A stretch of DNA of 64,000 nt. It comes from a virus. The notes beneath the pieces were generated by a model. That model did not search any database and was not told the DNA's origin. It was given only the letters and a program-made list of their open reading frames with translations. A program made the position numbers and the translations under genes. The stretch covers positions 96,001 to 160,000 of the IMG/VR virus record IMGVR_UViG_3300045988_176782. The stretch is one strand, 5' to 3'. This document shows, piece by piece, positions 7,039 to 60,517 of the stretch. How positions within the stretch are numbered: the first letter of the stretch is position 1; each line of letters begins with the position of its first letter.

Positions 7039-8169
7039 ATGTATTATAAGATAAAAGATGAATTTCTTTCTAACATCGCCGCAGCAATTAGAGAAAAATT
7101 AAACCTGCAAAAATAGCTAGAAATACAAGAATTTTCTCCTCTTATTCATTCTATTGGAGGAGAAACCTTTTTTGAAGTAGAAGGTCAAACTACATTTTTA
7201 GGCTGGGATGGTCTATAGAGGTATCGGCAAAATGCCACTTCTCCTTTCCCTTCTTCTCCCACTCCAAATTTTCTTCTCGTGGAAAAAGAAGTAGGAGATA
7301 ATTTTCTTCGTAGTAAAATCTATACTACAACCTCCGGAAAACACCTACTTTTTATTAAACTTCTCGCCGCCGCAACAATTACACTAAACATTAATGCTTC
7401 TTTTGTTGATTGGGGCGACGGCACACAAAGTACTACTCTATCCCATACCTATTCTACTGCCGGCGCATACACTATAAAATGTGATGGTACAACACTAAAG
7501 GCAAACTTCATTTCTCCTAACAGCATTTTATATGAGGCGCATTTTGCAAAAGGCTTAACCACCATACAACAAAATGCCTTTTCCAATCAAACTTTTCTCC
7601 AAATTCTAACGCTGCCTTCTTCTTGCACCAATATCGCTGCGGAAAATGTATTTAACGGTTGCGTTAGTTTAAATGCGTTAGTGTTTCCAGCTAATTGTTC
7701 TATTACAAAGTTAAATGCTGTAAAAGTTTAGAATATAATTTTGCCTTCTACAATTTCTGAACTACCTTCTTCCTACAACAATAGTAATCCCTCTCTAAAA
7801 CAAATTACTTTGCCTGAAGGTATAAAGGAAATTCCCGCCGCGTCCTTTTTGTATAATTATGGTTTGGAGCAAATTCATTTACCTTCTTCTTTGGTTTCTA
7901 TTGGCTCCAATGCCTTTAAAGGATGCGCGAATTTACAAAAATTGGAAATCCCGCAATCAATTACTACCTTAAGTGTTGATTGTTTTAGGGATTGCACTGG
8001 CTTACTTTCTATTAAATTAAAGTCTCCTACGCCTCCTATTCTCCAAAATGGGCTTGTGTTTGATAAGTCAGCTTGTCCCATTGTTGTGCCTAAAGGGACA
8101 CTTACTACCTACAAAAACGCAACAAATTGGATATTACTCCAAGACCGCTTAAAGGAGGCCGTGCAATGA
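7039..8169 (+). CDS. leucine-rich-repeat (BspA-like) protein (3 in-frame TAG)
   Basis: ATG 7039; TAG 7114, 7216, 7729 join ORFs 7279..7731 and 7741..8169; repeated motif I-P-x-S-[VI]-x-x-I-G-x-x-A-F-x-x-C. Confidence 0.7.
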
Positions 8170-22891: not shown

Positions 22892-24232
22892 ATGAATAAA
22901 AATTTAAAGCATACTGTCTTAACTTTATTTCCTTCCGCAGTTTGTAATTTAAACTGTACATACTGCAACATTAGTAAAAATAAGGCTCTAATTGAAATTG
23001 ATAAAGAATTGAAAGATTTCTTTAACGACCCAGATTATATAATGCAACGAGTGCATAAGTATTTTGAACCTTGTGCTCTTACCACATTAGAAACCTGGGG
23101 CGGCGAACCTTTTCTCCATATGGATAGAATATATAAGGTATTGCCGCGACTTGTGGAAGATTATCCATATTTACAGAATTTCTTCAGTTCTACAAATTTT
23201 TCTTTTTCTACTTGGATAGAACAATTTTTTGGCCTGATGCACCAATTTAAGCAATGGCCAGACCGTCAATTTAATTACAAACTCCAAATTTCTTGTGATG
23301 GCCCAACTGAATTAAACGATTTGGGGCGCGGAAAAGGCACAACTTTAAAGTGCTTGGAAAATTATGCCAGATTGGTTGAGTCTTTAGAAAAGAGATTGCC
23401 TGCTAATATCAATCTTTCTATTGTTCCTAAGCCTACTTTAAATTTAGAAACAGTTCGTTTATTAAATACAAAAGAAAAAATTATAGAATATTACCAATTC
23501 TTTGAAGATTGTTTTATTAATTTAGTTAATAAGTTGGAATTTAATAATGTTCAAGCTTACACAAACACTCCGAATATGGGCGTTCCTTGTCCAGCAACAA
23601 AAGAGGACGGGTTATATTTTGCTAAGTTTGCGAAAAATTGTGCAGAAGTAAGCAAACACGCAAAGAAATACTTCAAATATTATACTAATGTGCGACCTTT
23701 TTCCATATATCAAAAACAAACGAAAAACCTAACTTTCTATCAATCCTGTATTGGTTGTGGTATGGGATATTCTAATATTGGACTTTTGCCGCAAGACAAA
23801 ATTTCAGTATGTAATGAAGGATTTGTTCAAACTGTAAAACAATATAATGAACTACGCTCTCAAGAGCAAGAAAGCGGCACAATTGAAAAGAAAACTCGTC
23901 AATCAAAAAATCAACATCATCTATGCTATAGTGATGATGAATATGAGAAGTTTGAAGAACAAATGTGTAATTTCTGTTATACTGCAAATACATCAGTTTT
24001 GGTTGGTTTATGCAATCAAATCACTCTTTTGGCTTTAAGCGGCCAGATTGATAAACAATATATACAGCAATCTAATGCTCTTCACGCCGCACAAGTTTTA
24101 GCAGGAGAATACTTTTGTTTAAAAGATAATTATGACATTACAGGATCTTTTTCTCTTGTTCCTGTAGGGTTAATTCGTTTATTATTAAATGGTGCTTTGC
24201 CATATTTGGAGAATAATGATGAAAACATTTAA
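22892..24232 (+). CDS. radical SAM enzyme with C-terminal Cys clusters (SPASM-like)
   Basis: ORF track; N-terminal CNLNCTYC (CxxxCxxC); later clusters CIGCG...C and CNFC...C. Confidence 0.85.
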   Translation: MNKNLKHTVLTLFPSAVCNLNCTYCNISKNKALIEIDKELKDFFNDPDYIMQRVHKYFEPCALTTLETWGGEPFLHMDRIYKVLPRLVEDYPYLQNFFSSTNFSFSTWIEQFFGLMHQFKQWPDRQFNYKLQISCDGPTELNDLGRGKGTTLKCLENYARLVESLEKRLPANINLSIVPKPTLNLETVRLLNTKEKIIEYYQFFEDCFINLVNKLEFNNVQAYTNTPNMGVPCPATKEDGLYFAKFAKNCAEVSKHAKKYFKYYTNVRPFSIYQKQTKNLTFYQSCIGCGMGYSNIGLLPQDKISVCNEGFVQTVKQYNELRSQEQESGTIEKKTRQSKNQHHLCYSDDEYEKFEEQMCNFCYTANTSVLVGLCNQITLLALSGQIDKQYIQQSNALHAAQVLAGEYFCLKDNYDITGSFSLVPVGLIRLLLNGALPYLENNDENI

Positions 24233-25616
24233 AGAAGAAAATAACGATTTTTTAAAGTTTTTGTTAAATGAAAGGTTTTTTAAGAATTGGAAGAAACCTT
24301 CAAATAATGGCAAAGACTTACATTCTATTTCTCAAATTGAGTTTTATATTACTAACCAGTGTAATCAACATTGTGAGTATTGTTATTTATATAATAATTA
24401 CAATATCTATCCAAAAGAAGCCACAGAAGCAAAAACAATTCTTAATAATCTAACTATGGTTTTTAATTGGCTTATTGAAAATAATTATTATATTCAAACT
24501 ATTGATTATTTTTCTGGCGAAATTTGGCATACTCAATTAGGATTGGACATTTTGGATTTGACCTTTAAAGCTTTACAAAATGGTTTGCAAGTTAAACGAA
24601 TAATGATTCCTACAAATGGCTCATTTATTATGAATGATGCGGTTAAACAGAAAATTCAAAACTATATCAATGCTTTCCAAGACCTTGGGACAAGTCTTCA
24701 ACTGTCTTTTTCCATTGATGGTAAAGTAATTGACAACTTGAATCGTCCACGTAATGACAGTTCTAAATTATATACTGACGAATTTTATAATAAAGTATTT
24801 GATTTTGCTTATCATAATGATTTTTTCTTCCATCCAATGGTTGCTGCTTATTCTATTGAAAAATGGAAAGAAAACTTCTATTGGTGGAAAGAAATGTGCC
24901 AAAAATATAATTGGTCAACTCATTATCGTGTAATGATGTTGGAAGTGCGCAATGATGACTGGACGGAAGAAAAGATTAAAACTTATTGTGATTTTCTTAC
25001 ATTTTTAATGGATGATTTTAGAGAAGAAAATCCTCAATATGCTTCAATAGAAAATTTTTCTGAATTTATCTTTGGTAAATATATAACACTAGAAGAAAAC
25101 TATACTTACCTTCCTTGGGTACTTGCGCTAACTTCCGATGTTTTTTCTTGTACAATACCGTGTCAATTATGTATTCGTTTAGGCGATTTAGCTTTGGCAC
25201 CTTGCCATAGAACAGCATACGATAAATTTATCTATGGCTATTTTCAAACTCAAAATGGTCGCATCGTAGACATTAAGGAAAATAATTTTTATCTTGCTGA
25301 ACGATTTCTTTATATGAGCAATATTTACGCTACTCCTCATTGCGATACTTGTGTGTATAATAAGTTCTGTATAAAGGGATGCGCAGGTTCACAGTATGAA
25401 AATACTGGAGATTTATTCTTCCCTATTCCCTCTGTATGCAAATTAGAAAAAGCAAAAATTAATACAGCAATTAACTATTATCAAAAGAATGGCATAATTG
25501 ATTACTACAAAAATCTTCCTATTGACCATTTTATGTATTCAAGTGCCTCAAGACTTTTAGGAGAAATTTATGCTATTCAAAAAGAAACCGAAACTTATTC
25601 AATCTCTAACTCTTGA
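24216..25616 (+). CDS. radical SAM/SPASM enzyme
   Basis: ORF track frame 24189..; GGAG SD before ATG 24216; CNQHCEYC (CxxxCxxC); C-terminal CDTCVYNKFCIKGCAG is SPASM-like. Confidence 0.85.
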   Translation: MMKTFKEENNDFLKFLLNERFFKNWKKPSNNGKDLHSISQIEFYITNQCNQHCEYCYLYNNYNIYPKEATEAKTILNNLTMVFNWLIENNYYIQTIDYFSGEIWHTQLGLDILDLTFKALQNGLQVKRIMIPTNGSFIMNDAVKQKIQNYINAFQDLGTSLQLSFSIDGKVIDNLNRPRNDSSKLYTDEFYNKVFDFAYHNDFFFHPMVAAYSIEKWKENFYWWKEMCQKYNWSTHYRVMMLEVRNDDWTEEKIKTYCDFLTFLMDDFREENPQYASIENFSEFIFGKYITLEENYTYLPWVLALTSDVFSCTIPCQLCIRLGDLALAPCHRTAYDKFIYGYFQTQNGRIVDIKENNFYLAERFLYMSNIYATPHCDTCVYNKFCIKGCAGSQYENTGDLFFPIPSVCKLEKAKINTAINYYQKNGIIDYYKNLPIDHFMYSSASRLLGEIYAIQKETETYSISNS

Positions 25617-26369: not shown

Positions 26370-26817
26370 TTACCATATTACATTAAAACACGAAGATTTT
26401 ATGTATCTTCTTAAACATTGTACTTATCATCCAAAAGACAACTTGCAGCCTATAGTCGTCCTTGATAGTAATATTTGTCCAAATTGTGGGACTGAAGATG
26501 CCTGGCATTATGATAATAAGTCATTAACTGTCTCTTGCGCTTCTTGTGGGCATAACCGTACTAATATGTATCTTTCTGGAAGTGCGGTTCCCAGTAAAGA
26601 GGGCGGTGGCGGTGAAGTTGGATGGATGATTCCATCGGTAATTTTTCTTGATGAAAACGATGAAAAATATTTTAAGAAAATTTGTAAAAAAGCACGAAGG
26701 GAAGTATTTGTATGGAAAATCAAAAACCAACCCTCATTGTTATGGTCGGAGTTCCGGGAAGTGGTAAAGATTACCAAATTGAAAATAGTGAATTTCTTTA
26801 CGCAGATGGAGAAGTAA
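26362..26817 (+). CDS. zinc-ribbon protein, paralog of 26055..26369
   Basis: ORF track; shares the N-terminal HEDFxYLLxHC motif and CPNC...CASC; the 3' end overlaps the next gene by ~100 nt, so the true end is uncertain. Confidence 0.5.
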   Translation: MNDYHITLKHEDFMYLLKHCTYHPKDNLQPIVVLDSNICPNCGTEDAWHYDNKSLTVSCASCGHNRTNMYLSGSAVPSKEGGGGEVGWMIPSVIFLDENDEKYFKKICKKARREVFVWKIKNQPSLLWSEFREVVKITKLKIVNFFTQMEK

Positions 26818-27245
26818 AAAGAGAGGTCATAAGTCGCGACCTCGTGCGGTATGGGATGGTAAGGGAAGATGAAGAATATTTTTGTCGTGAAAAGGAAGTT
26901 TTTGAACAATATATTCTTCAAATTTCTAATGCTCTTTCAAATAATAAAATTGTAATTGCAAATGCCACTCAAGCTAATTATGGTAGCCGCAAAAAGCTTC
27001 TCCACGCTGTTGATGAAAAGTTTGGTCGCGATTACAATATTGTTATGTATTGTATTATTTGCGATTATGAAACTGCAGACCGTCGTAATAAGCAACGTGA
27101 AGGTAGAGCTGTTGTACCAAGCAAGGCTATGATGGAAATGTTTAATAATTTTTCTGTGCCAAATCTTAAAGAAGATGATAGGATTGAAAAAATTATCATT
27201 GAATGTTATGGTGCGTGTAGCATTATGCGGCGACAGAAAATTTAA
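26712..27245 (+). CDS. P-loop polynucleotide-kinase-like protein
   Basis: ORF track; GVPGSGKD Walker A, ISRDLVR, lid-like RRNKQREGRAVVP (resembles the T4 Pnk kinase domain, recalled). Confidence 0.7.
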   Translation: MENQKPTLIVMVGVPGSGKDYQIENSEFLYADGEVKREVISRDLVRYGMVREDEEYFCREKEVFEQYILQISNALSNNKIVIANATQANYGSRKKLLHAVDEKFGRDYNIVMYCIICDYETADRRNKQREGRAVVPSKAMMEMFNNFSVPNLKEDDRIEKIIIECYGACSIMRRQKI

Positions 27246-27263: not shown

Positions 27264-28055
27264 ATGAATCAAGTGTATTTTTCCTCGGATTTTCATCTGG
27301 GGCATTTGCGCGAATTTCTGTTTAAGCCTCGTGGTTTTTCTTGTATCGAAGAACACGACCGCAATATTATTGCAAATATCAATAAGGTTGTCGCAGAAGA
27401 CGATATTCTTTATATTCTTGGCGACCTTATGTTAAACGATAACGACAAGGGAATAGAATATCTAAAGCAAATTAAATGCCAAGATGTCCGTGTTGTGCTT
27501 GGCAATCACGATACGGATAATCGTAAGACTTTGTATGAATCGCTTCCTAACTTTACTATTCTTGGTTATGCTCATCCATTTAAATATAAGAAGTGGCGTT
27601 TTATGCTTTCTCATTATCCAATGGCTACAGCAAATTATGATGATGATGAAAAGCCTTATTTGAAGGTGCATAATATTTGCGGCCATAGCCATACCAAGAA
27701 TCGCTTTGACGATAAGACTGGCTCTTATCATGTGGAGTTGGATGCGCACGAAAATTTCCCTGTGAGTATTGATGAAATTATTTCTGATATTAAAAATCGT
27801 AAAGAAATTCAAAAAGTAGATACAATTATCCCTTACGAATGTTATACTACACACGAACACAGCCCTTTCCGTTTTGATGGTAATTGTCCTCATTGTGGCC
27901 AGCCACTTATGATTAATAGATTAAATCTACACGATATGGAAGTATGCCTTGACTCTTATAAGGGATATTCTTATCGTTTTAATGGACATTTTGTATGTGA
28001 AAATTGCGGAAAAGAAGTTAATGAATTTCAAACTTATTGGGGTGAGTTAAAGTGA
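27264..28055 (+). CDS. calcineurin-like metallophosphoesterase with C-terminal zinc ribbon
   Basis: ORF track; DFHLGH, GDL, GNHD, GHSH motifs in order; CPHC...CENC tail. Confidence 0.85.
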   Translation: MNQVYFSSDFHLGHLREFLFKPRGFSCIEEHDRNIIANINKVVAEDDILYILGDLMLNDNDKGIEYLKQIKCQDVRVVLGNHDTDNRKTLYESLPNFTILGYAHPFKYKKWRFMLSHYPMATANYDDDEKPYLKVHNICGHSHTKNRFDDKTGSYHVELDAHENFPVSIDEIISDIKNRKEIQKVDTIIPYECYTTHEHSPFRFDGNCPHCGQPLMINRLNLHDMEVCLDSYKGYSYRFNGHFVCENCGKEVNEFQTYWGELK

Positions 28056-36719: not shown

Positions 36720-37853
36720 ATGAAGCGTTTTCAGGCAGTAATAGATTGCGGTTTTGGTGACGCAGGAAAAGGCTTAGTTTCTCGTTGGCTTGCAAAGCAA
36801 GCATTTGAGCGTAAAGAAAAAACTTTAACTGTATTTTTTAGTGGCGGTTGCCAACGCGCCCATACCACTATTGAAGGCGTTTTTCATACTTTACCTGCTG
36901 GGTTATTTTTTGACAGTGATATTCTATATAGCGAAATGTTTGTCATTGACCCTATCGCTATTTATTTAGAATATGAAAGTTGGAAGCAAAGTTTCGGGCC
37001 ATTTATTGAACCAAAACTTTATGTAAGCCCACATTGTCGTGTGGTTACTCCTTTTGATGTCTGGAATAATCGTCTAAAAGAAACTCGTCGTGGCGCGCAA
37101 AAACATGGCAGTTGCGGTATGGGCATTTTTGAAACCGTATTTAGAGATAAGAGTTTATTTGAATTAAAAGCCAGAGACCTTTCCAACCCTTGGAAACTTT
37201 GGGAACAACTAAAGAAAATTGAAGAACTTTATAGCAATTCTTGCAGTGATATGGTCTATAATGCCCACAACTTTATGAAGGCCGCGGAATGGTTTACTAA
37301 AAATGTAGAGCAATTTGAAACATATGAAGTATTAAAAAAATATGATACCATTATTTTTGAAGGAAGCCAAGGTTTGTTGCTTTCTCAAACTAATGTGGAT
37401 TTCTTTCCATACTTAACTCCTGCCTCTACCGGTGTTGATAATATTGAACATTGGTTCAATTTAGGCGCGGCGGAAGAAAAAGAAATCTACTATGTTTCTC
37501 GCTCTTATATGACACGACACGGTGCTGGGCCTTTTCCAACAGAATGTAAGAAGAAAGATATTAATCCCACAATTGTTGATTCTACTAATATTCCTAATAA
37601 ATGGCAAAATAATTTGCGTTTTGGATACTATGATGTAAAACTTATTGGTGATGCTATTGTTAAGGATACTTGTAGAATTACGAACAATAAGGTAAAATTT
37701 AATATGGTATTTACGCAACTTAACTATACTAATGGCAAAGTAAGATGCGGCAAGAATGACGATTTGGATATTAATAATGATTTATTTTTCTTTCTCAATT
37801 TTGACCATCTATATGGTTCTTGGGATAAAGAAAATGTAGAAAGGATTATGTAA
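36720..37853 (+). CDS. divergent adenylosuccinate-synthetase (PurA) family protein
   Basis: ORF track; GFGDAGKG and GGCQRAHT line up with PurA GDEGKGK and GGHNAGHT (recalled). Confidence 0.7.
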   Translation: MKRFQAVIDCGFGDAGKGLVSRWLAKQAFERKEKTLTVFFSGGCQRAHTTIEGVFHTLPAGLFFDSDILYSEMFVIDPIAIYLEYESWKQSFGPFIEPKLYVSPHCRVVTPFDVWNNRLKETRRGAQKHGSCGMGIFETVFRDKSLFELKARDLSNPWKLWEQLKKIEELYSNSCSDMVYNAHNFMKAAEWFTKNVEQFETYEVLKKYDTIIFEGSQGLLLSQTNVDFFPYLTPASTGVDNIEHWFNLGAAEEKEIYYVSRSYMTRHGAGPFPTECKKKDINPTIVDSTNIPNKWQNNLRFGYYDVKLIGDAIVKDTCRITNNKVKFNMVFTQLNYTNGKVRCGKNDDLDINNDLFFFLNFDHLYGSWDKENVERIM

Positions 37854-39482: not shown

Positions 39483-39535
39483 ACTTTTTTAAAAAATCTT
39501 GTTATAATAACTTATAAATGAAAGGAAGTAAGAGA

Positions 39536-39967
39536 ATGAATAAACGCGATACGCATATGTTTGAGTTGGCAAAATCGGAGAGCTTGTTGTCGGATTATAA
39601 GGGTTATAGTAATGTAAAAATTGGTTGTGTTGTAAGTTATAATGGCTCCATTATCGCACGAGGCCACAACACCGATAAGACCTCAACAATTCAATCTCGT
39701 TACAACTGTTTAAGATACGCTGAAAGTCCTACCCGATATTTTGCCGCAAAGGGACACGCGGAAATTCTTGCTCTTACTAAAATTAAGTATTTAGATATTG
39801 ATTTTTCTAAAGTAAAGGTATTTGTATACCGAGAAACTAAAAATGGAAAGCCAGCTATGGCGCGACCTTGTCCTTCGTGTATGGGTTTTATTAAAGAATT
39901 GGGCATTAAAAAGATTTACTACACTACTGATTGTGGCTTTGCCTATGAAGAGCTTAAATATGATTGA
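39536..39967 (+). CDS. dCMP/cytidine deaminase family protein
   Basis: ORF track frame 39518..; HAEILAL and PCPSCMGFI zinc motifs. Confidence 0.85.
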   Translation: MNKRDTHMFELAKSESLLSDYKGYSNVKIGCVVSYNGSIIARGHNTDKTSTIQSRYNCLRYAESPTRYFAAKGHAEILALTKIKYLDIDFSKVKVFVYRETKNGKPAMARPCPSCMGFIKELGIKKIYYTTDCGFAYEELKYD

Positions 39968-44399: not shown

Positions 44400-45032
44400 A
44401 TGAATATAACAGTTAAGTTATATAATGATAAAAATATTAAATTCTATGGCTCTAATCAAATTACAATAGATTTAGAGGAATATTTGGTTGGATGTGTCGC
44501 GGCAGAAATAGGAAATGCACCACTTGAAGCTTGTAAGTCTTAGGCTGTGGCAAGCAGAACTTTTGCTCTAAATGCAATTAAAAGTAAAGGTTATATCACA
44601 GATAAAAGTTCTTCTGACCAAGCTTTCAGAAGTGAGCGTTTAACGGGTTATCCTAATGTAATTTAGGCCGTTAAAGATACCGAAGGAGAAGTTTTATATT
44701 ACAATGATAAACTCGCTAAAGCCTATTACTCTGCTTCTAATGGCGGCTATATGATTAGTGCAAAAACACGATGGGGTGGCGACCTGCCTTATTCTGTAAG
44801 TGGCGTTGATAAATACGATGATGGTAAAGGCAATGGCCACGGAGTTTAGTTGAGTTAGATTGGCGCGAAAAATCGTGCAAAAGCCGGTTTTGAATATAAG
44901 TAGATTTTAAGTTTTTATTATCCTGGGACAAATATTCATAAAATTGAAGAACAATCATATGAAATTAAAATCCCAATAACTTCTGAATTATATAAAAATC
45001 TCTCAACTGCTGAGGTTGAAATGAGGAGGTGA
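44400..45032 (+). CDS. SpoIID/LytB-domain protein (5 in-frame TAG)
   Basis: ATG 44400; one open frame to TGA 45030 with TAG at 44541, 44664, 44847, 44856, 44901; motifs EACKS-x-AVASRTFAL and GHGV-x-LS-x-IGA. Confidence 0.8.
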
Positions 45033-46579: not shown

Positions 46580-46608
46580 TTGACAAAAATAAAAATTTAA
46601 TCTATAAT
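46580..46608 (+). promoter_or_regulatory. sigma70/SigA-type promoter driving the suppressor-tRNA transcript
   Basis: TTGACA-17-TATAAT then ATATACAGAAAGTGAGAG. Confidence 0.7.
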
Positions 46609-46741
46609 ATATACAGAAAGTGAGAGAGAAATCTTTCACCAGACTGGCGATAGGAGTGGTGCTTATGAAACACGCTTTTACTCTGACTGGAGATAAAACT
46701 CCACCTCGCTATAAAGGGGAGAAGTAATTCTCCCCATACGA

Positions 46742-46831
46742 TGGCCCTTAGTTGAATGGTGACAACAGCTGACTCTAAATCAGTAAGTGGGGTTGACCCC
46801 GCAGGTCTTGGTTCGAATCCAAGAGGGCTAA
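46742..46831 (+). tRNA. suppressor tRNA, anticodon CTA (reads UAG)
   Basis: Hand fold: acceptor TGGCCCT/AGGGCTA (U1:A72, G2:U71), D arm GTTG-AATGGTGA-CAAC, anticodon arm GCTGA-CTCTAAA-TCAGT, 22-nt variable arm with GGGG/CCCC stem, T arm CTTGG-TTCGAAT-CCAAG; no encoded CCA. Confidence 0.8.
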
Positions 46832-46978
46832 GGTATCAAATGGTCTGCCTTCTCGTGGCGATACTGACTGAAATAACGAAAGGCCTTTACAATGAAAGGG
46901 AGCATTAGAGTAATTAACTAATGAGTAATGTGCCCCATACACAAGCTTTCATATTGTTTATAATATGGGGTGAATTTT

Positions 46979-47815
46979 ATGGGATATATTTATAAAATTA
47001 CTAATGATATTAATGGAAAAGTTTATATTGGTAAAACATTAAATACGGTTGAAGCAAGATGGAAAGAACATTGTTATGATAAAGACCGGAGAAAAGTAGA
47101 AAATCGTCCGCTTTATTAGGCAATGAATAAATATGGTCTTCAGCATTTTTCTATTGAGACTGTAGAAGAATGTAAAACTAATTTAGAAGAACGAGAAGTT
47201 TATTGGATTAAATATTATAATTCTTATATTGGTTGGCCAAATAGCAATGGTTATAACGCTACTTTAGGTGGAGATGGAAAACAATATATTAATTATGATA
47301 TGATTCGTGAATTAGCAAATACAGAAAAAACTTAGGTTGAAATTGCTGCTATTGTTGGATGTAATGTTGATACTGTGGCAAAAGTTTATTTATAGGATAA
47401 TCAAGAAAATTATAATTATAATAAACGGATTAGTATCGCTGTTTATCAGAAAGATAAAGATGGTAATATTATTGCAGAGTATCCAACAATAAAATCCGCC
47501 GCAGAAGCAACCTTAACTAGTCCAAGTCATATTGGACAATGTTGTGCTGGGAAACGAAAAACTTGTGGTGGTTATTATTGGGAATATGTTAATACTAAAG
47601 AAGGTTAGACACGGCGAGCAATTAGTAATTAGCCTAAAGTAAATATCCCGCGTGAAATATTAAAATCATTAATAAGAGAACATCCTATGGAAGAAATTGG
47701 CCGTATATATGAATGTTCTGCAGCATCAATTAGACGATGTTGCGAACGGCTAAATCTTCCACGAACTAAAAAAGAAATCAATTCTTATTCTGATGAAGAA
47801 TGGTTTAAAATATAA
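46979..47815 (+). mobile_element. free-standing GIY-YIG homing endonuclease gene (5 in-frame TAG)
   Basis: MGYIYKITNDINGKVYIGKT...RWKEH...YWIKYYNS (GIY-YIG motifs); TAG 47117, 47333 and three more join the frame to TAA 47813; C-terminal HTH-like region. Confidence 0.8.
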
Positions 47816-47888
47816 AGTTGTTATGGTGTGAAAATCCAACCCATCAAGCCTCTTAATAATGCTCAAACCGATGGGAGTTTCATAGCTT

Positions 47889-48059: not shown

Positions 48060-48088
48060 TTGACAAAAATAAAAAATTAAATTATAAT
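48060..48088 (+). promoter_or_regulatory. sigma70/SigA-type promoter driving the ~600-nt RNA
   Basis: TTGACA-17-TATAAT. Confidence 0.7.
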
Positions 48089-56989: not shown

Positions 56990-57068
56990 GTGCGCGAGTA
57001 ACCGAATTGGCATAGGTACTGGTCTAAGAAGCCAGGTTTTATGAGTTTAAGTCTCACCTTGCACACCA
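56990..57068 (+). tRNA. tRNA-like gene, apparent anticodon AAG, class-I body
   Basis: Acceptor GTGCGCG/CTTGCAC (one mismatch), anticodon arm CTGGT-CTAAGAA-GCCAG, atypical T loop TTTAAGT, A73, encoded CCA. Confidence 0.5.
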
Positions 57069-58664: not shown

Positions 58665-59969
58665 ATGAAAAAGTCTTATTTAGATTTAATTGCAACTTTA
58701 TATTCAGAACCTGATTTACGAAGTTGTAGAAACATTACCTTATAGGTTTGCGATGATTGCTGTTTAAAATGTTCATATTGCTATCAAATTCATAAAAGCC
58801 ACAATTATATGACAAAAGAGACTGCAAAAGCCATTATTGATTTACTATTTAGAATGTATGATGAAGATAAGCCAGACGCATTTATCAATCATACAACTCA
58901 TGGTATAATTCTTGATTTTATCGGTGGCGAGCCTCTAATGAACGTTGAAATTATGGAATTTGCTACTGAATACTTTATTGACCAATGTTTGCAAAAAAAT
59001 CACGAGTGGCTTTATAATTTTCGCACAAGTTTTGCAACAAATGGTATTCTTTATTTTGAACCAAAAGTATAGGCATATTTACAAAAATTTCACAATTTTA
59101 TTTCTATGACCGTTAGTATTGATGGCCCAAAAGAAATTCATGATATTTGCCGTCTTGACCGTGATGGTAATGGTAGTTTTGAACGAGCAAGTACCGCGGC
59201 GCACCATTATTGGGAATATTATGGAAAAGATGTCGGGGGACGAGATGAAACTAAAGTTACCATTGCTCCAGACAATTTATCTCAATTAAATAAAATTGTA
59301 GATTATTTCTTAAATGAAGGCGTTACAGTGATTAATGCCAATCCAGTTTATGAAGTAGAATGGACAGTAGAATAGGCAAAAATATATTATAATGAATTAA
59401 AAAAATTAGCAAATAAATTGTTATTAAATTTAGAAATTAAATGTAGTATTTTTGATAGCCATTAGAACGTCCCCTTGCCTATTAGTGATAATACGAACTG
59501 GTGCGGCGGTGATGGACATATGTTAGCTTTTGACCCGCACGGAAATGCTTATCCTTGTTTGAGATATATGGAAAGCTCTTTAGGTGGAGAAGTTGAGCCT
59601 TTAATTATTGGTGATACTAATGGTATTTATAATACGCCAGAAAGTCAAGAAATTAGGTGTAAACTTTGTACATTAACTCGTAGTAATTAGTCTACGGAAG
59701 AATGTACGCATTGTTCAATCGCCGCGGGCTGCTCTTGGTGCAGTGCTTGGAATTATCAGCAATTTAAAAAGATCGGTAAGCGTAGCACGAATATTTGTTG
59801 GATGCACCGAGCCGCAGCATTGGCCAATGTCTATTATTGGAATCTTAAATACCGTTTAGAAGAAAATGAAAAAAGATTCCCAATTTATCTTGAACAAAAA
59901 TATGCTTTGTAGATAATACCCTCTGAAGAATATGATTTGTTGCTTTCACTTTCTCAATGGGGAGAGTGA
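58665..59969 (+). CDS. radical SAM/SPASM enzyme (6 in-frame TAG)
   Basis: ATG 58665; one frame through TAG 58743, 59070, 59373, 59463, 59688, 59910 to TGA 59967, joining ORFs 58809.., 59106.., 59475..; CCLKCSYC (CxxxCxxC); C-terminal CTHCSIAAGCSWC. Confidence 0.75.
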
Positions 59970-59974
59970 TATTT

Positions 59975-60517
59975 ATGAGCTGGCTAAAAGGAGATAAAAT
60001 TACAGCAGAGGATTTCATTGCTATTAAAGAAAAAGTTAAAAACGAATTAGCTCGGCGAAATGCAGAAGGAAGTGTAGCAAACTATGCAACGAGCTATACT
60101 GATATGCCTGTATAGAAAGGGAAAATAAAAGTTAGCCATATTACAGAAATTGTTGAACCATTGAGTCATATTAATAATGTAGATTATGATTTAAATAAAC
60201 CAATTACAATAAAATCTTTAACTACAATTCAAACAATGTTAAATAGTTTAACCACAGCAGAAAAGGCTGCATCAACATTAGAAGCAACCGGGTGTAAAGC
60301 TTCCTGCACTGGTTTATGTTATACATCTTGTTCAGAAACGTGTCGTTCTTGTGGAGATAGTTGCAGTCAAAATTGTGATACTGGATGCAATTGGACTTGT
60401 AAAGGGTCATGCCGCAATACTTGTTCTGGACGCTGCAAAGGTAGCTGTGGAACTACTTGCCAATTGGGCTGTTCTAACAATTGCAAAGGAAGCAGTGTAG
60501 GTGGCTGTTCTGCATAA
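59975..60517 (+). CDS. protein with C-terminal CxxxC-repeat domain (1 in-frame TAG)
   Basis: ATG 59975, TAG 60113, continues into ORF 60161..60517; the last ~75 aa have Cys at nearly every 4th residue (CKASCTGLCYTSCSETCRSCGDSCSQNCDTGCNWTCKGSC...). Confidence 0.7.

Follow-up and report, generated by a model that had tools for sequence, protein, structure and literature searches.

An amber suppressor tRNA of a TAG-reading phage with a probable glutamine pseudo-anticodon in its variable arm

Code-15 phages (crAss-like, Lak, Agate, and related phages) encode a tRNA(CUA), use TAG within structural and lysis genes, and read it as glutamine; no phage synthetase lies nearby, charging by the host is presumed (10.1101/2021.08.26.457843; PMC9523058; PMC10607447), and how host synthetases accept the suppressor tRNAs of recoded phages has been stated as an open question (10.1101/2021.08.26.457843). 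Both GlnRS and TrpRS lean heavily on the anticodon, which suppressors have altered by definition. Minimal theta ribozymes of the hepatitis delta virus (HDV)-like type cleave at tRNA 3' ends in recoded gut phages, especially at those of CCA-less amber suppressors (PMC10879173), and a pseudo-anticodon engineered into a variable arm raised aminoacylation (PMC7590224). Here, we analyzed a tRNA(CUA) locus that likewise combines these code-15 traits, located in IMG/VR virus record IMGVR_UViG_3300045988_176782 (positions 96,001 to 160,000; this stretch of 64,000 nucleotides is hereafter the window, and coordinates refer to it). We propose that this tRNA is probably an amber suppressor for glutamine, with an extra arm that presents glutamine identity to a host enzyme as a pseudo-anticodon arm. 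A broader proposal, that stop-suppressor tRNAs of phages carry a second, non-decoding anticodon arm, YUG(A) for glutamine on amber and CUCCAAA for tryptophan on opal suppressors, with the synthetase reading this arm and the ribosome reading the stop anticodon, seems to us evenly poised. The parts of the tRNA are as follows:

46742..46831, + strand: tRNA(CUA), 90 nt, detected by ARAGORN and Rfam RF00005
46775..46777, + strand: anticodon CUA, complementary to UAG, in the loop CUCUAAA with U33
46785..46806, + strand: 22-nt variable region AAGUGGGGUUGACCCCGCAGGU, divided as AA-GUGGGG-UUGA-CCCCGC-AGGU
46793..46796, + strand: extra-arm loop UUGA, read as a pseudo-anticodon UUG (Gln) plus an A37-like base

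The RF00005 score was 58.9 bits (gathering score 29; E = 3.5e-10 window-wide), ARAGORN placed identical ends, and the minimum-free-energy fold was the same cloverleaf as that of ARAGORN and Rfam. This fold has the canonical 7/5 acceptor/T arrangement, with a 7-bp acceptor stem (UGGCCCU/AGGGCUA, including U1:A72, G2.U71, and G3:C70), a D arm with a 4-bp stem and an 8-nt loop (GUUG-AAUGGUGA-CAAC), the anticodon arm GCUGA-CUCUAAA-UCAGU, and the T arm CUUGG-UUCGAAU-CCAAG. The variable region consists of A44 and A45, a 6-bp hairpin (46787-46792 with 46797-46802), and then AGGU; the discriminator is A73 at 46831, and CCA is not encoded. An initial annotation had placed a tRNA with anticodon CUA at 46742-46831, with U1:A72, A73, no CCA, and a 22-nt variable region. 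ARAGORN and RF00005 recovered this tRNA, the covariance-model fold, which that annotation had named as a check on the anticodon, also gave CUA, and every one of these features was found where it had been placed. ARAGORN attached the labels "Pyl" and "SeC" to such tRNAs, which rest on the anticodon only; given the 7/5 folds and class-I D-arms, we rejected tRNA-Pyl and tRNA-Sec as candidates.

The base composition of the window was 35.7% G+C, and the + strand held nearly all genes. TAG was the sole interruption in many open reading frames, which lengthen on TAG readthrough, and multiple TAGs lay inside Pfam-supported genes. The radical-SAM peptide maturase gene (58665-59969) had six in-frame TAGs, three of them in columns occupied by Q in 119-120 of 120 full-length homologues (50-93% identity), and the other three corresponding to Q in the nearest relatives. 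At the five TAGs of the SpoIID-like lysis protein gene (44400-45032), solved SpoIID structures had Q, E, G, Q, and D, and both Q-aligned TAGs were the conserved Q of KAQA and of MSQ. The TAG at 44847 in this gene aligned to the conserved G of GHGVGMSQ, not to Q; we take this unexplained case to be a substitution that is tolerated or specific to the lineage. Compared to the two relatives L037 and L038, which are ~93% identical at the DNA level, window TAGs were exchanged in ten cases, six of them for CAA, three for CAG, and one for TGG, with 32 TAGs shared, and the lone TGG exchange sits ahead of a likely internal start. Given that TAG to CAA requires two base changes, this exchange pattern is what synonymy predicts. 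Judging from these comparisons, in-frame TAG is glutamine in the window phage, and both the homologue columns and the exchange with CAA and CAG sustain the earlier statement that protein alignments point to glutamine.

We collected homologues of the tRNA with exact-pattern scans on the anticodon arm across viral and metagenome contigs, and then with a looser pattern that left the variable region unconstrained; no constraint was placed on the extra arm in any of the family searches. The acceptor, D, and T stems had many compensatory changes across 14 distinct homologues, with 14 pairs altered on both sides. Paired cells made up 92.8% in these homologues versus 32-47% with slid partners, none of 500 shuffles reached the observed values, and the outer three pairs of the extra-arm hairpin were conserved in the family. 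UUG and CUG are both glutamine anticodons, and A is usual at position 37. The extra-arm loop held YUGA (UUGA or CUGA) in 14/14 close homologues, and YUGA was present in the arm of 36 of the 37 distinct long-arm CUA tRNAs versus 5/109 for the remaining long-arm tRNAs from these loci (0/25 UCA, 5/84 of the rest; Fisher p = 1.3e-27). YUG was within the predicted hairpin loop in 33 long-arm CUA tRNAs, and many loops in this family were 7-nt copies of tRNA-Gln anticodon loops (CUCUGAA, UUCUGAG, CUUUGAA). The arm stems varied by lineage, with at least five different sequences, and the loop triplet was constant; the long-arm CUA set formed 24 clusters at 90% identity, 7 at 80%, and one at 70%. The window loop is a compact form, UUGA closed by G:C. 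The initial annotation considered the tRNA by itself insufficient to tell which amino acid is inserted, which is arguably wrong, given that the arm loop holds the glutamine anticodon UUG followed by A.

We also compared the remainder of the tRNA across the family. The first acceptor pair among the 37 CUA members was U:A in 16, A.C in 8, A:U in 5, one of G.U, U.U, U.C, or U.G in 6, and G:C in 2, so that 35/37 had a weak or mismatched first pair, and both G:C members were Leu- or Tyr-like. The discriminator was G in 22, A in 14, and U in 1, and position 2:71 across the 14 homologues was G:C in 7 and G.U in 7, with G.U in the window. In one subgroup, the acceptor UGGGGUG/CACCCUA-G matched the phages' own tRNA-Gln(UUG) at 14/15 positions (stem plus discriminator), which substantiates the Gln-like acceptor end proposed in the initial annotation. 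Segment similarity against 78 other phage tRNAs placed the acceptor nearest Gln, the anticodon stem nearest Tyr, and the D and T arms with generic class-I tRNAs; Tyr and Ser tRNAs ranked among the most distant when the acceptor, D, and T arms were compared. The family D-arm is class-I-like (4-bp stem, 7-10-nt loop), and the extra arm is joined by linkers of 2 unpaired nt on the 5' side and 4-6 nt on the 3' side, compared to 1-3 nt on the 3' side in the phages' own tRNAs for Ser, Leu, and Tyr. The window tRNA thus looks like a class-I, Gln-type body plus an added hairpin. The arm had been described as typical of class-II Ser/Leu/Tyr tRNAs, a description that the class-I-like D-arm and the differing linkers contradict; of the two origins then offered, a Gln tRNA that gained an arm fits better, and the retargeting of a class-II tRNA does not hold.

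Opal suppressors served as a test of the pseudo-anticodon idea. Before the scan, we set the prediction that long-arm UCA tRNAs of phages reading TGA as tryptophan should display CCA, the Trp anticodon. We found at least 25 distinct long-arm UCA tRNAs in viral contigs (L076-L078, and detected by ARAGORN from L079 onward), which ARAGORN labels SeC. CCA was in the arm of 25/25 of these, and UCCAA was in the hairpin loop of 24/25 but in 0/121 other long-arm tRNAs (p = 1.3e-26). The commonest arm loop in this family was CUCCAAA, the tRNA-Trp anticodon loop, and the acceptor ends were Trp-like (A1:U72 in 19/25, G73 in 21/25). The Gln motif was thus found on amber and the Trp motif on opal suppressors, and the reverse was never seen. 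This reciprocity is our strongest argument that the arm is linked to amino-acid identity. A long-arm tRNA-Ile(UAU) at a single viral locus had GAUAA in its arm, like the tRNA-Ile(GAU) anticodon loop, and may be a further pseudo-anticodon arm, as a single example.

The tRNA is part of a predicted transcript with the following additional elements:

46580..46608, + strand: sigma-70-type promoter, TTGACA-17 nt-TATAAT, consensus match 12/12
46609..46741, + strand: structured 5' leader of the tRNA transcript, 133 nt, three to four hairpins
46665..46727, + strand: possible 20-codon open reading frame in the leader (MKHAFTLTGDKTPPRYKGEK), with AGGAG 8 nt before ATG
46832..46885, + strand: candidate HDV-like (theta-type) self-cleaving ribozyme, from a nested double-pseudoknot descriptor

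The promoter, which is also kept in L037 and L038, was one of nine perfect TTGACA-17-TATAAT sites in the window, every one on the + strand, compared to a chance expectation of 0.13; further perfect promoters lay upstream of the ROOL RNA (48060), the YqeY-like gene (48877), and the tRNA array (55119). The leader had a minimum free energy of -42.2 kcal/mol (z = -4.1), with 0/200 shuffles equally stable, and its final hairpin, GGGGAGAAG-UAAU-UCUCCCC, lies immediately 5' of the tRNA. The consensus promoter and the structured leader had both been recognized in the initial annotation, and these values (12/12 positions; z = -4.1 versus shuffles) agree with it. Leader identity to L037 and L038 was ~93-97% despite the different tRNA behind it. 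Coding by the leader open reading frame is doubtful because both differences in L037/L038 are non-synonymous. Rfam returned nothing above noise on the leader and on the downstream spacer. The cultured-phage database had no match to the DNA of the locus or of the surrounding 20 kb, nor, by tblastn, to the SpoIID-like protein. Bacterial and archaeal genomes had no exact match to the anticodon-arm pattern, and therefore provided no prophage and no host lead.

The ribozyme candidate would cleave 5' of G46832, directly after A73, with C46877, at the start of J4/2, as the putative catalytic base. Its segments are GGUAUC-AAAU-GGUCU-GCC-U-UC-UCGU-GGC-GAUACU-GA-CUGAAAUAA-CGAA-AGGCC. We rebuilt the descriptor from domain-delimited examples in the tables of PMC10879173; it had a single match on both strands of the window (128 kb) and one match in ten window shuffles. 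A relaxed descriptor applied to 612 kb of fetched loci gave ten matches, 6/10 of which abutted tRNA 3' ends, those of CUA, Leu-CAA, and Cys tRNAs. P1, P3, and L3 were homologous between the window copy and these tRNA-abutting ribozymes, and P2 covaried among ribozymes (GGUCU/AGGCC, UUAUAGGA/UCCUAUAA, GUCCC/GGGAC, UUCCU/AGGAA). The predicted fold and position of the ribozyme are therefore well supported by comparison. The absence of CCA would be explained by a ribozyme cutting right after A73, an end that would then need repair and CCA addition. The initial annotation had overlooked this ribozyme, as well as the cassette that the tRNA forms with a GIY-YIG gene. Among the entries compared in a part of the theta-ribozyme tables (PMC10879173), neither the window tRNA nor the window ribozyme sequence was present. 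In L002, a 166-kb viral contig, a 72-nt tRNA with the ochre anticodon UUA (L002:4060-4131) lies 130 nt 3' of a long-arm CUA tRNA plus ribozyme.

In the two relatives, the tRNA and the genes behind it are replaced as a unit, which involves the following features:

46744..47822, + strand: swapped cassette of tRNA, ribozyme, and GIY-YIG gene, replaced in L037 and L038
46886..46978, + strand: structured 5' untranslated region of the endonuclease gene, with a pattern common to L001, L003, L005, and L007
46979..47815, + strand: GIY-YIG homing-endonuclease-like gene (Pfam PF01541, NUMOD-like domain) with five in-frame TAGs

The cassette flanks were ~93-97% identical to L037 and L038. L037 has, at 7449-7806, a long-arm CUA tRNA with A1.C72, G2.U71, G73, an encoded CCA, and an arm containing UUCUG; its anticodon loop is split by a ~230-nt group I intron (7492-7724; RF00028, 45.9 bits, gathering score 50, local-search E = 1.6e-10). 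L038 has, at 7721-7811, a 91-nt CUA RNA with the loop CUCUAAA, U1.U72, G73, and CCA, whose arm AAAUGGCAUUGAACCGCCUAA carries UUGA. This RNA received no tRNA call from ARAGORN or Rfam, and its cloverleaf (5-bp D stem, 4-nt loop, 6-bp anticodon stem, 4-bp T stem) is 8/4-like, of the allo-tRNA type. Three scaffolds at one site thus had in common the anticodon CUA, a weak first pair, and an arm loop of Gln-like sequence. Such cassette polymorphism in ~93%-identical phages points to strong diversifying pressure on the suppressor gene. In more distant loci, the long-arm tRNA was again bordered by a GIY-YIG gene and, upstream, by the gene found there in the window, and this synteny was present in many loci. 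Given the shared GIY-YIG flank, the endonuclease may mobilize the cassette, and SegB among the T4 tRNA genes provides an analogy. In the 5' untranslated region of the endonuclease gene, CCCCAUA can pair, by eye, with a UAUGGGG that overlaps the Shine-Dalgarno sequence, a layout that resembles the translational control of phage homing-endonuclease genes. An abiF RNA motif (RF03085, 49.9 bits; 47840-47876) that borders the cassette on the right, just past the GIY-YIG gene, is kept in L037 and L038 and might be a decoy for an abortive-infection system.

Two genes downstream of the cassette could be relevant to tRNA charging or repair:

49049..49498, + strand: YqeY-like gene (Pfam PF09424, E = 8e-25; PDB YqeY entries 8xjg, 1ng6)
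49515..50843, + strand: DRB0094-type RNA ligase-like protein (Pfam PF09414; TIGR02306 is the best match, below its cut-off)

The YqeY-like gene is 2.2 kb downstream of the tRNA and has its own consensus promoter. YqeY is a paralogue of the GatB tail, which a docking model places near the variable loop of tRNA-Gln (PMC2811023), and YqeY makes Deinococcus GlnRS bind tRNA with greater affinity, in cis only (PMC1865053). Three viral contigs encoded a YqeY relative, two of them near-identical phages. YqeY was absent from the short flanks of other tRNA loci, and its co-occurrence with the arm was not shown beyond this lineage; a functional link of the YqeY-like protein to the tRNA would be speculation. 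As for the ligase, the DRB0094-type class is reportedly 140-fold enriched in theta-ribozyme phages (PMC10879173), and the nearest cultured relatives of the window protein (44% identity) were in 160-169-kb Bacillus and Lysinibacillus phages. Elsewhere in the window, a P-loop kinase gene (26712-27245; AAA_33, with weak Pnkp and PSTK similarity) adjoins a metallophosphoesterase gene (27264-28055). By their domain matches, the kinase, metallophosphoesterase, and RNA ligase resemble an RNA end-healing and sealing set, which could, as a conjecture, process the cyclic-phosphate ends left by the ribozyme.

The pseudo-anticodon proposal can be put together as follows. TAG codons in many late, structural, and lysis genes would be translated as glutamine in this phage. 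A host-type sigma-70 promoter would drive a transcript of leader, tRNA, and ribozyme, from which RNase P presumably takes off the ~130-nt leader; the theta ribozyme, beginning right after A73, would cut the 3' end, the cyclic phosphate would be healed, and CCA would then be added. Glutamine identity would come from two sources, a Gln-type acceptor end with the weak first pair U1:A72, and an extra-arm loop showing the glutamine anticodon UUG followed by A, so that the pseudo-anticodon arm would supply determinants lost from CUA at position 36. The charging enzyme would be GlnRS, or else GluRS of the non-discriminating kind (ND-GluRS) followed by GatCAB, and the true CUA arm would decode UAG on the ribosome.

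Known identity elements are compatible with this scheme in several respects. GlnRS identity consists of the acceptor end and the anticodon, in which U35 and G36 are important; mutations cause losses of up to 1e5-fold, and the main element for B. subtilis GluRS is a modified U34 (PMC9976931). The CUA anticodon has U35 but A36 and no U34, and U-U-G-A is present only in the extra-arm loop. An amber tRNA-Ser, which is long-armed, turns into a Gln acceptor after 1:72 and 3:70 changes (PMC9976931), and therefore a long arm is no block to GlnRS; phage tRNA(CUA)s have also been described as substrates of E. coli GlnRS (PMC12636597). GatCAB recognition involves U1:A72 and the lack of an extra D-loop base of the tRNA-Glu kind (PMC2811023, PMC9976931), and the window U1:A72 fits the first part of this rule, with A:U, A.C, U.U, or G.U in other family members. 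The window pair suits the GlnRS and GluRS/GatCAB routes alike, and the mismatched first pairs of other members seem to fit GlnRS better. The sigma-70 promoters, strong Shine-Dalgarno sequences, SpoIID-type lysis gene, ROOL RNA, and ligase relatives point to a possible Bacillota host, and many Bacillota have ND-GluRS plus GatCAB instead of GlnRS. With regard to geometry, the order of parts is D stem, A26, CUA arm, AA, pseudo arm, AGGU (a class-I-like variable loop), and T stem, and the pseudo arm in many members has a full 5-bp stem, a 7-nt loop, and flexible linkers. Given this layout, the two arms might exchange position under the D stem, and such an exchange may be a working mode of phage pseudo-anticodon arms.

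Several points weigh against the pseudo-anticodon proposal. We infer transcription, processing, self-cleavage, the charging enzyme, and use of the arm alike. The geometry is a weak point: GlnRS and GluRS monomers have one anticodon-binding domain, which sits at about the distance of the true anticodon from the active site, and the variable arm leaves the core elsewhere. With a single distant domain, the pseudo-anticodon would be reachable only if the arms exchange places or the tRNA bends, and the engineered precedent (PMC7590224) needed a synthetase to which a second anticodon-binding domain had been fused. The window tRNA shares U1:A72 and G3:C70 with the E. coli Gln identity set but departs from it (G73, G2:C71) by its A73 and G2.U71, and its arm loop is only 4 nt long, or 6 nt with the closing pair open, instead of 7 nt. 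In the complex with GlnRS, pairs 32.38 and 33.37 lengthen the anticodon stem and bases 34-36 alone splay out, and therefore a short loop is not obviously incompatible. Armless, short class-I CUA suppressors exist in the same kinds of phages, so the arm is not indispensable, and the sequences compared are related, so that the Fisher tests overstate their independence. Finally, the ribozyme candidate departs from the published consensus in its 6-bp P1, U-A in P1.1, 9-nt L4, and CGAA J4/2 (not CUAA).

Some of these points can be read in favor of an ordinary Gln-type suppressor, charged via the acceptor end and C34/U35, on which the arm is a tolerated relic, for example of an anticodon-arm duplication. 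Short class-I suppressors with anticodon CUA and an acceptor end of this kind do occur in related phage loci, GlnRS readily charges amber suppressors (PMC9976931, PMC12636597), and the long-arm CUA tRNAs are one cluster at 70% identity, for which common descent is possible. We nevertheless consider a relic unlikely, given that the loop triplet is kept while the arm stem and the acceptor, D, and T arms diverge (7 clusters at 80%; at least five stems), and that the opal family independently keeps a Trp loop in 24/25 members; isotype specificity would not persist in both families on a neutral relic. The same isotype dependence bears on the possibility that the arm is a handle for a partner other than a synthetase, such as a phage protein (YqeY-like or RNA ligase), a modification enzyme, or host nucleases cutting tRNA anticodon or variable loops, against which it would be a decoy or shield. 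This possibility, which we consider quite unlikely, draws on the YqeY-like gene nearby together with the position of the GatB tail near the variable loop (PMC2811023) and the Deinococcus YqeY effect (PMC1865053), on known defense systems that cut the variable loop of tRNA-Tyr (PMC13096335), and on the abiF RNA motif and RNA-repair-type genes close by. However, the association of YqeY with the arm was not shown outside this lineage, and the Deinococcus protein acts in cis only. Moreover, the motif follows the amino acid (Gln versus Trp) as an anticodon would, for which an anticodon-reading enzyme is the simplest explanation.

That a class-II tRNA (Tyr, Leu, or Ser) was made into a suppressor, inserting its own amino acid or a mixture at TAG, is hardly credible. 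A long arm with A73 is indeed found in bacterial tRNA-Tyr and tRNA-Leu, and the anticodon stem equals that of phage tRNA-Tyr(GUA) at 9/10 positions, with a loop that differs from tRNA-Tyr only at position 34. Yet TAG positions are Gln and not Tyr, Leu, or Ser, the first pair is U1:A72 and not G1:C72, the D-arm is class-I-like, the linkers differ, Tyr and Ser bodies are among the least similar, and most family members have G73; we rejected class-II retargeting on the Gln alignments and the class-I D-arm. A two-headed tRNA, in which the arms exchange under the D stem so that it is charged via the UUG arm and decodes UAG as well as CAA/CAG, inserting Gln either way, is very unlikely in our view. 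The symmetric order D stem-A26-arm 1-AA-arm 2-AGGU is in its favor, as are the many members with a full 5-bp/7-nt second arm and flexible linkers; its basis is topological reasoning only, and the window second arm has a 4-nt loop. This two-headed reading is a special case of the pseudo-anticodon explanation and not a true alternative to it.

Beyond the suppressor locus, the window contained several other features. A full-length ROOL RNA (RF03087, 295.8 bits; 48109-48684), also present in L037 and L038, lies behind a perfect promoter (48060-48088). A tRNA-like gene at 55903-56018 (Rfam 48 bits; called by ARAGORN only with the intron option) had normal acceptor, D, and T arms plus ~43 extra bases in two additional hairpins and no clear anticodon, and was conserved at L037 15806-15922 and L038 15041-15156. 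A tRNA-Leu(AAG)-like gene at 56992-57065 (Rfam 39.5 bits, one acceptor-stem mismatch) was missed by default ARAGORN. A short adenylosuccinate-synthetase homologue (36720-37853; 377 aa; PF00709, E = 2e-32) is near a deaminase-like gene (39518-39967); phage PurZ enzymes, the makers of 2-aminoadenine, are of this size class, and the phage DNA might be modified. The maturase gene noted above for its TAGs is of the radical-SAM "CXXX-repeat" type, the gene after it encodes a product that terminates in a long CXXX run (58665-60517 for the pair), and two more radical-SAM/SPASM-like genes are at 22892-24232 and 24189-25616.

If the pseudo-anticodon proposal is true, it would give a concrete, directly testable answer to how hosts charge the suppressors of recoded phages, and would represent a natural, widespread, and undescribed uncoupling of tRNA identity from decoding, as a general mechanism behind phage code switching. 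The inserted amino acid would be legible from the tRNA sequence, which would allow better code prediction for metagenomic phages, and tRNAs labeled Pyl, SeC, or undetermined by gene finders would be explained. The motif is short, isotype-specific, and easily mutated. These arms would also be ready parts for genetic-code engineering, in which the idea was already built by hand (PMC7590224). Amber suppressor tRNAs of code-15 phages and theta ribozymes are already known. As far as we searched, a natural variable arm copying a sense anticodon loop, in both the Gln and Trp suppressor families, and the three-way cassette polymorphism are new; we did not find a natural anticodon-like variable arm in suppressor tRNAs in the literature, the coverage of which was incomplete, so that an earlier description is possible. 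The only precedent found for a pseudo-anticodon arm was engineered.

In the code-15 literature consulted, the suppressor tRNAs are called Gln-isotype, with no mention of a long arm or a second anticodon-like loop. The ribozyme candidate has the order of the published theta ribozymes (P1-J1/2-P2-P3-L3-P3'-P1'-P1.1-L4-J4/2-P2'), and shares with them a (here predicted) cleavage site at most 1 nt from the tRNA 3' end, a CCA-less tRNA, code 15, and a DRB0094-type ligase (PMC10879173), but it has a P1 of 6 bp and not 7, UC/GA and not CC/GG in P1.1, a longer L4, and CGAA in J4/2. Allo-tRNAs (Mukai et al. 2017, PMC5389517) are likewise unusual long-arm tRNAs of rumen bacteria and phages, some of them nonsense suppressors; they mostly have Ser or Ala identity, and a pseudo-anticodon is unreported in them. 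The L038 RNA has their 8/4-like fold.

Long-arm amber suppressors that take glutamine also have laboratory counterparts, including the su+3 tRNA-Tyr mischarging mutants. Amber tRNA-Ser mischarged by GlnRS likewise accepts Gln after changes that alter or weaken the first acceptor pairs (PMC9976931). These are, however, laboratory mutants of true class-II tRNAs, with arms that lack an anticodon-like loop. Anticodon-loop mimicry has its own precedents in the thrS operator and the yeast HisRS mRNA, in which a hairpin copying an anticodon loop is likewise recognized by a synthetase through its anticodon-binding domain (PMC9976931, PMC6542539), but these mimics are located in mRNAs and repress translation, in contrast to a mimic inside a decoding tRNA. 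Closest in design is the engineered pseudo-anticodon tRNA, likewise an amber suppressor with a long variable arm tipped by a copy of a sense anticodon loop and designed to draw in the cognate synthetase (PMC7590224). That system is synthetic, with His identity on an allo-tRNA chassis, whereas the window tRNA would be a natural case with glutamine identity, or tryptophan in the opal family, that addresses an unmodified host enzyme.

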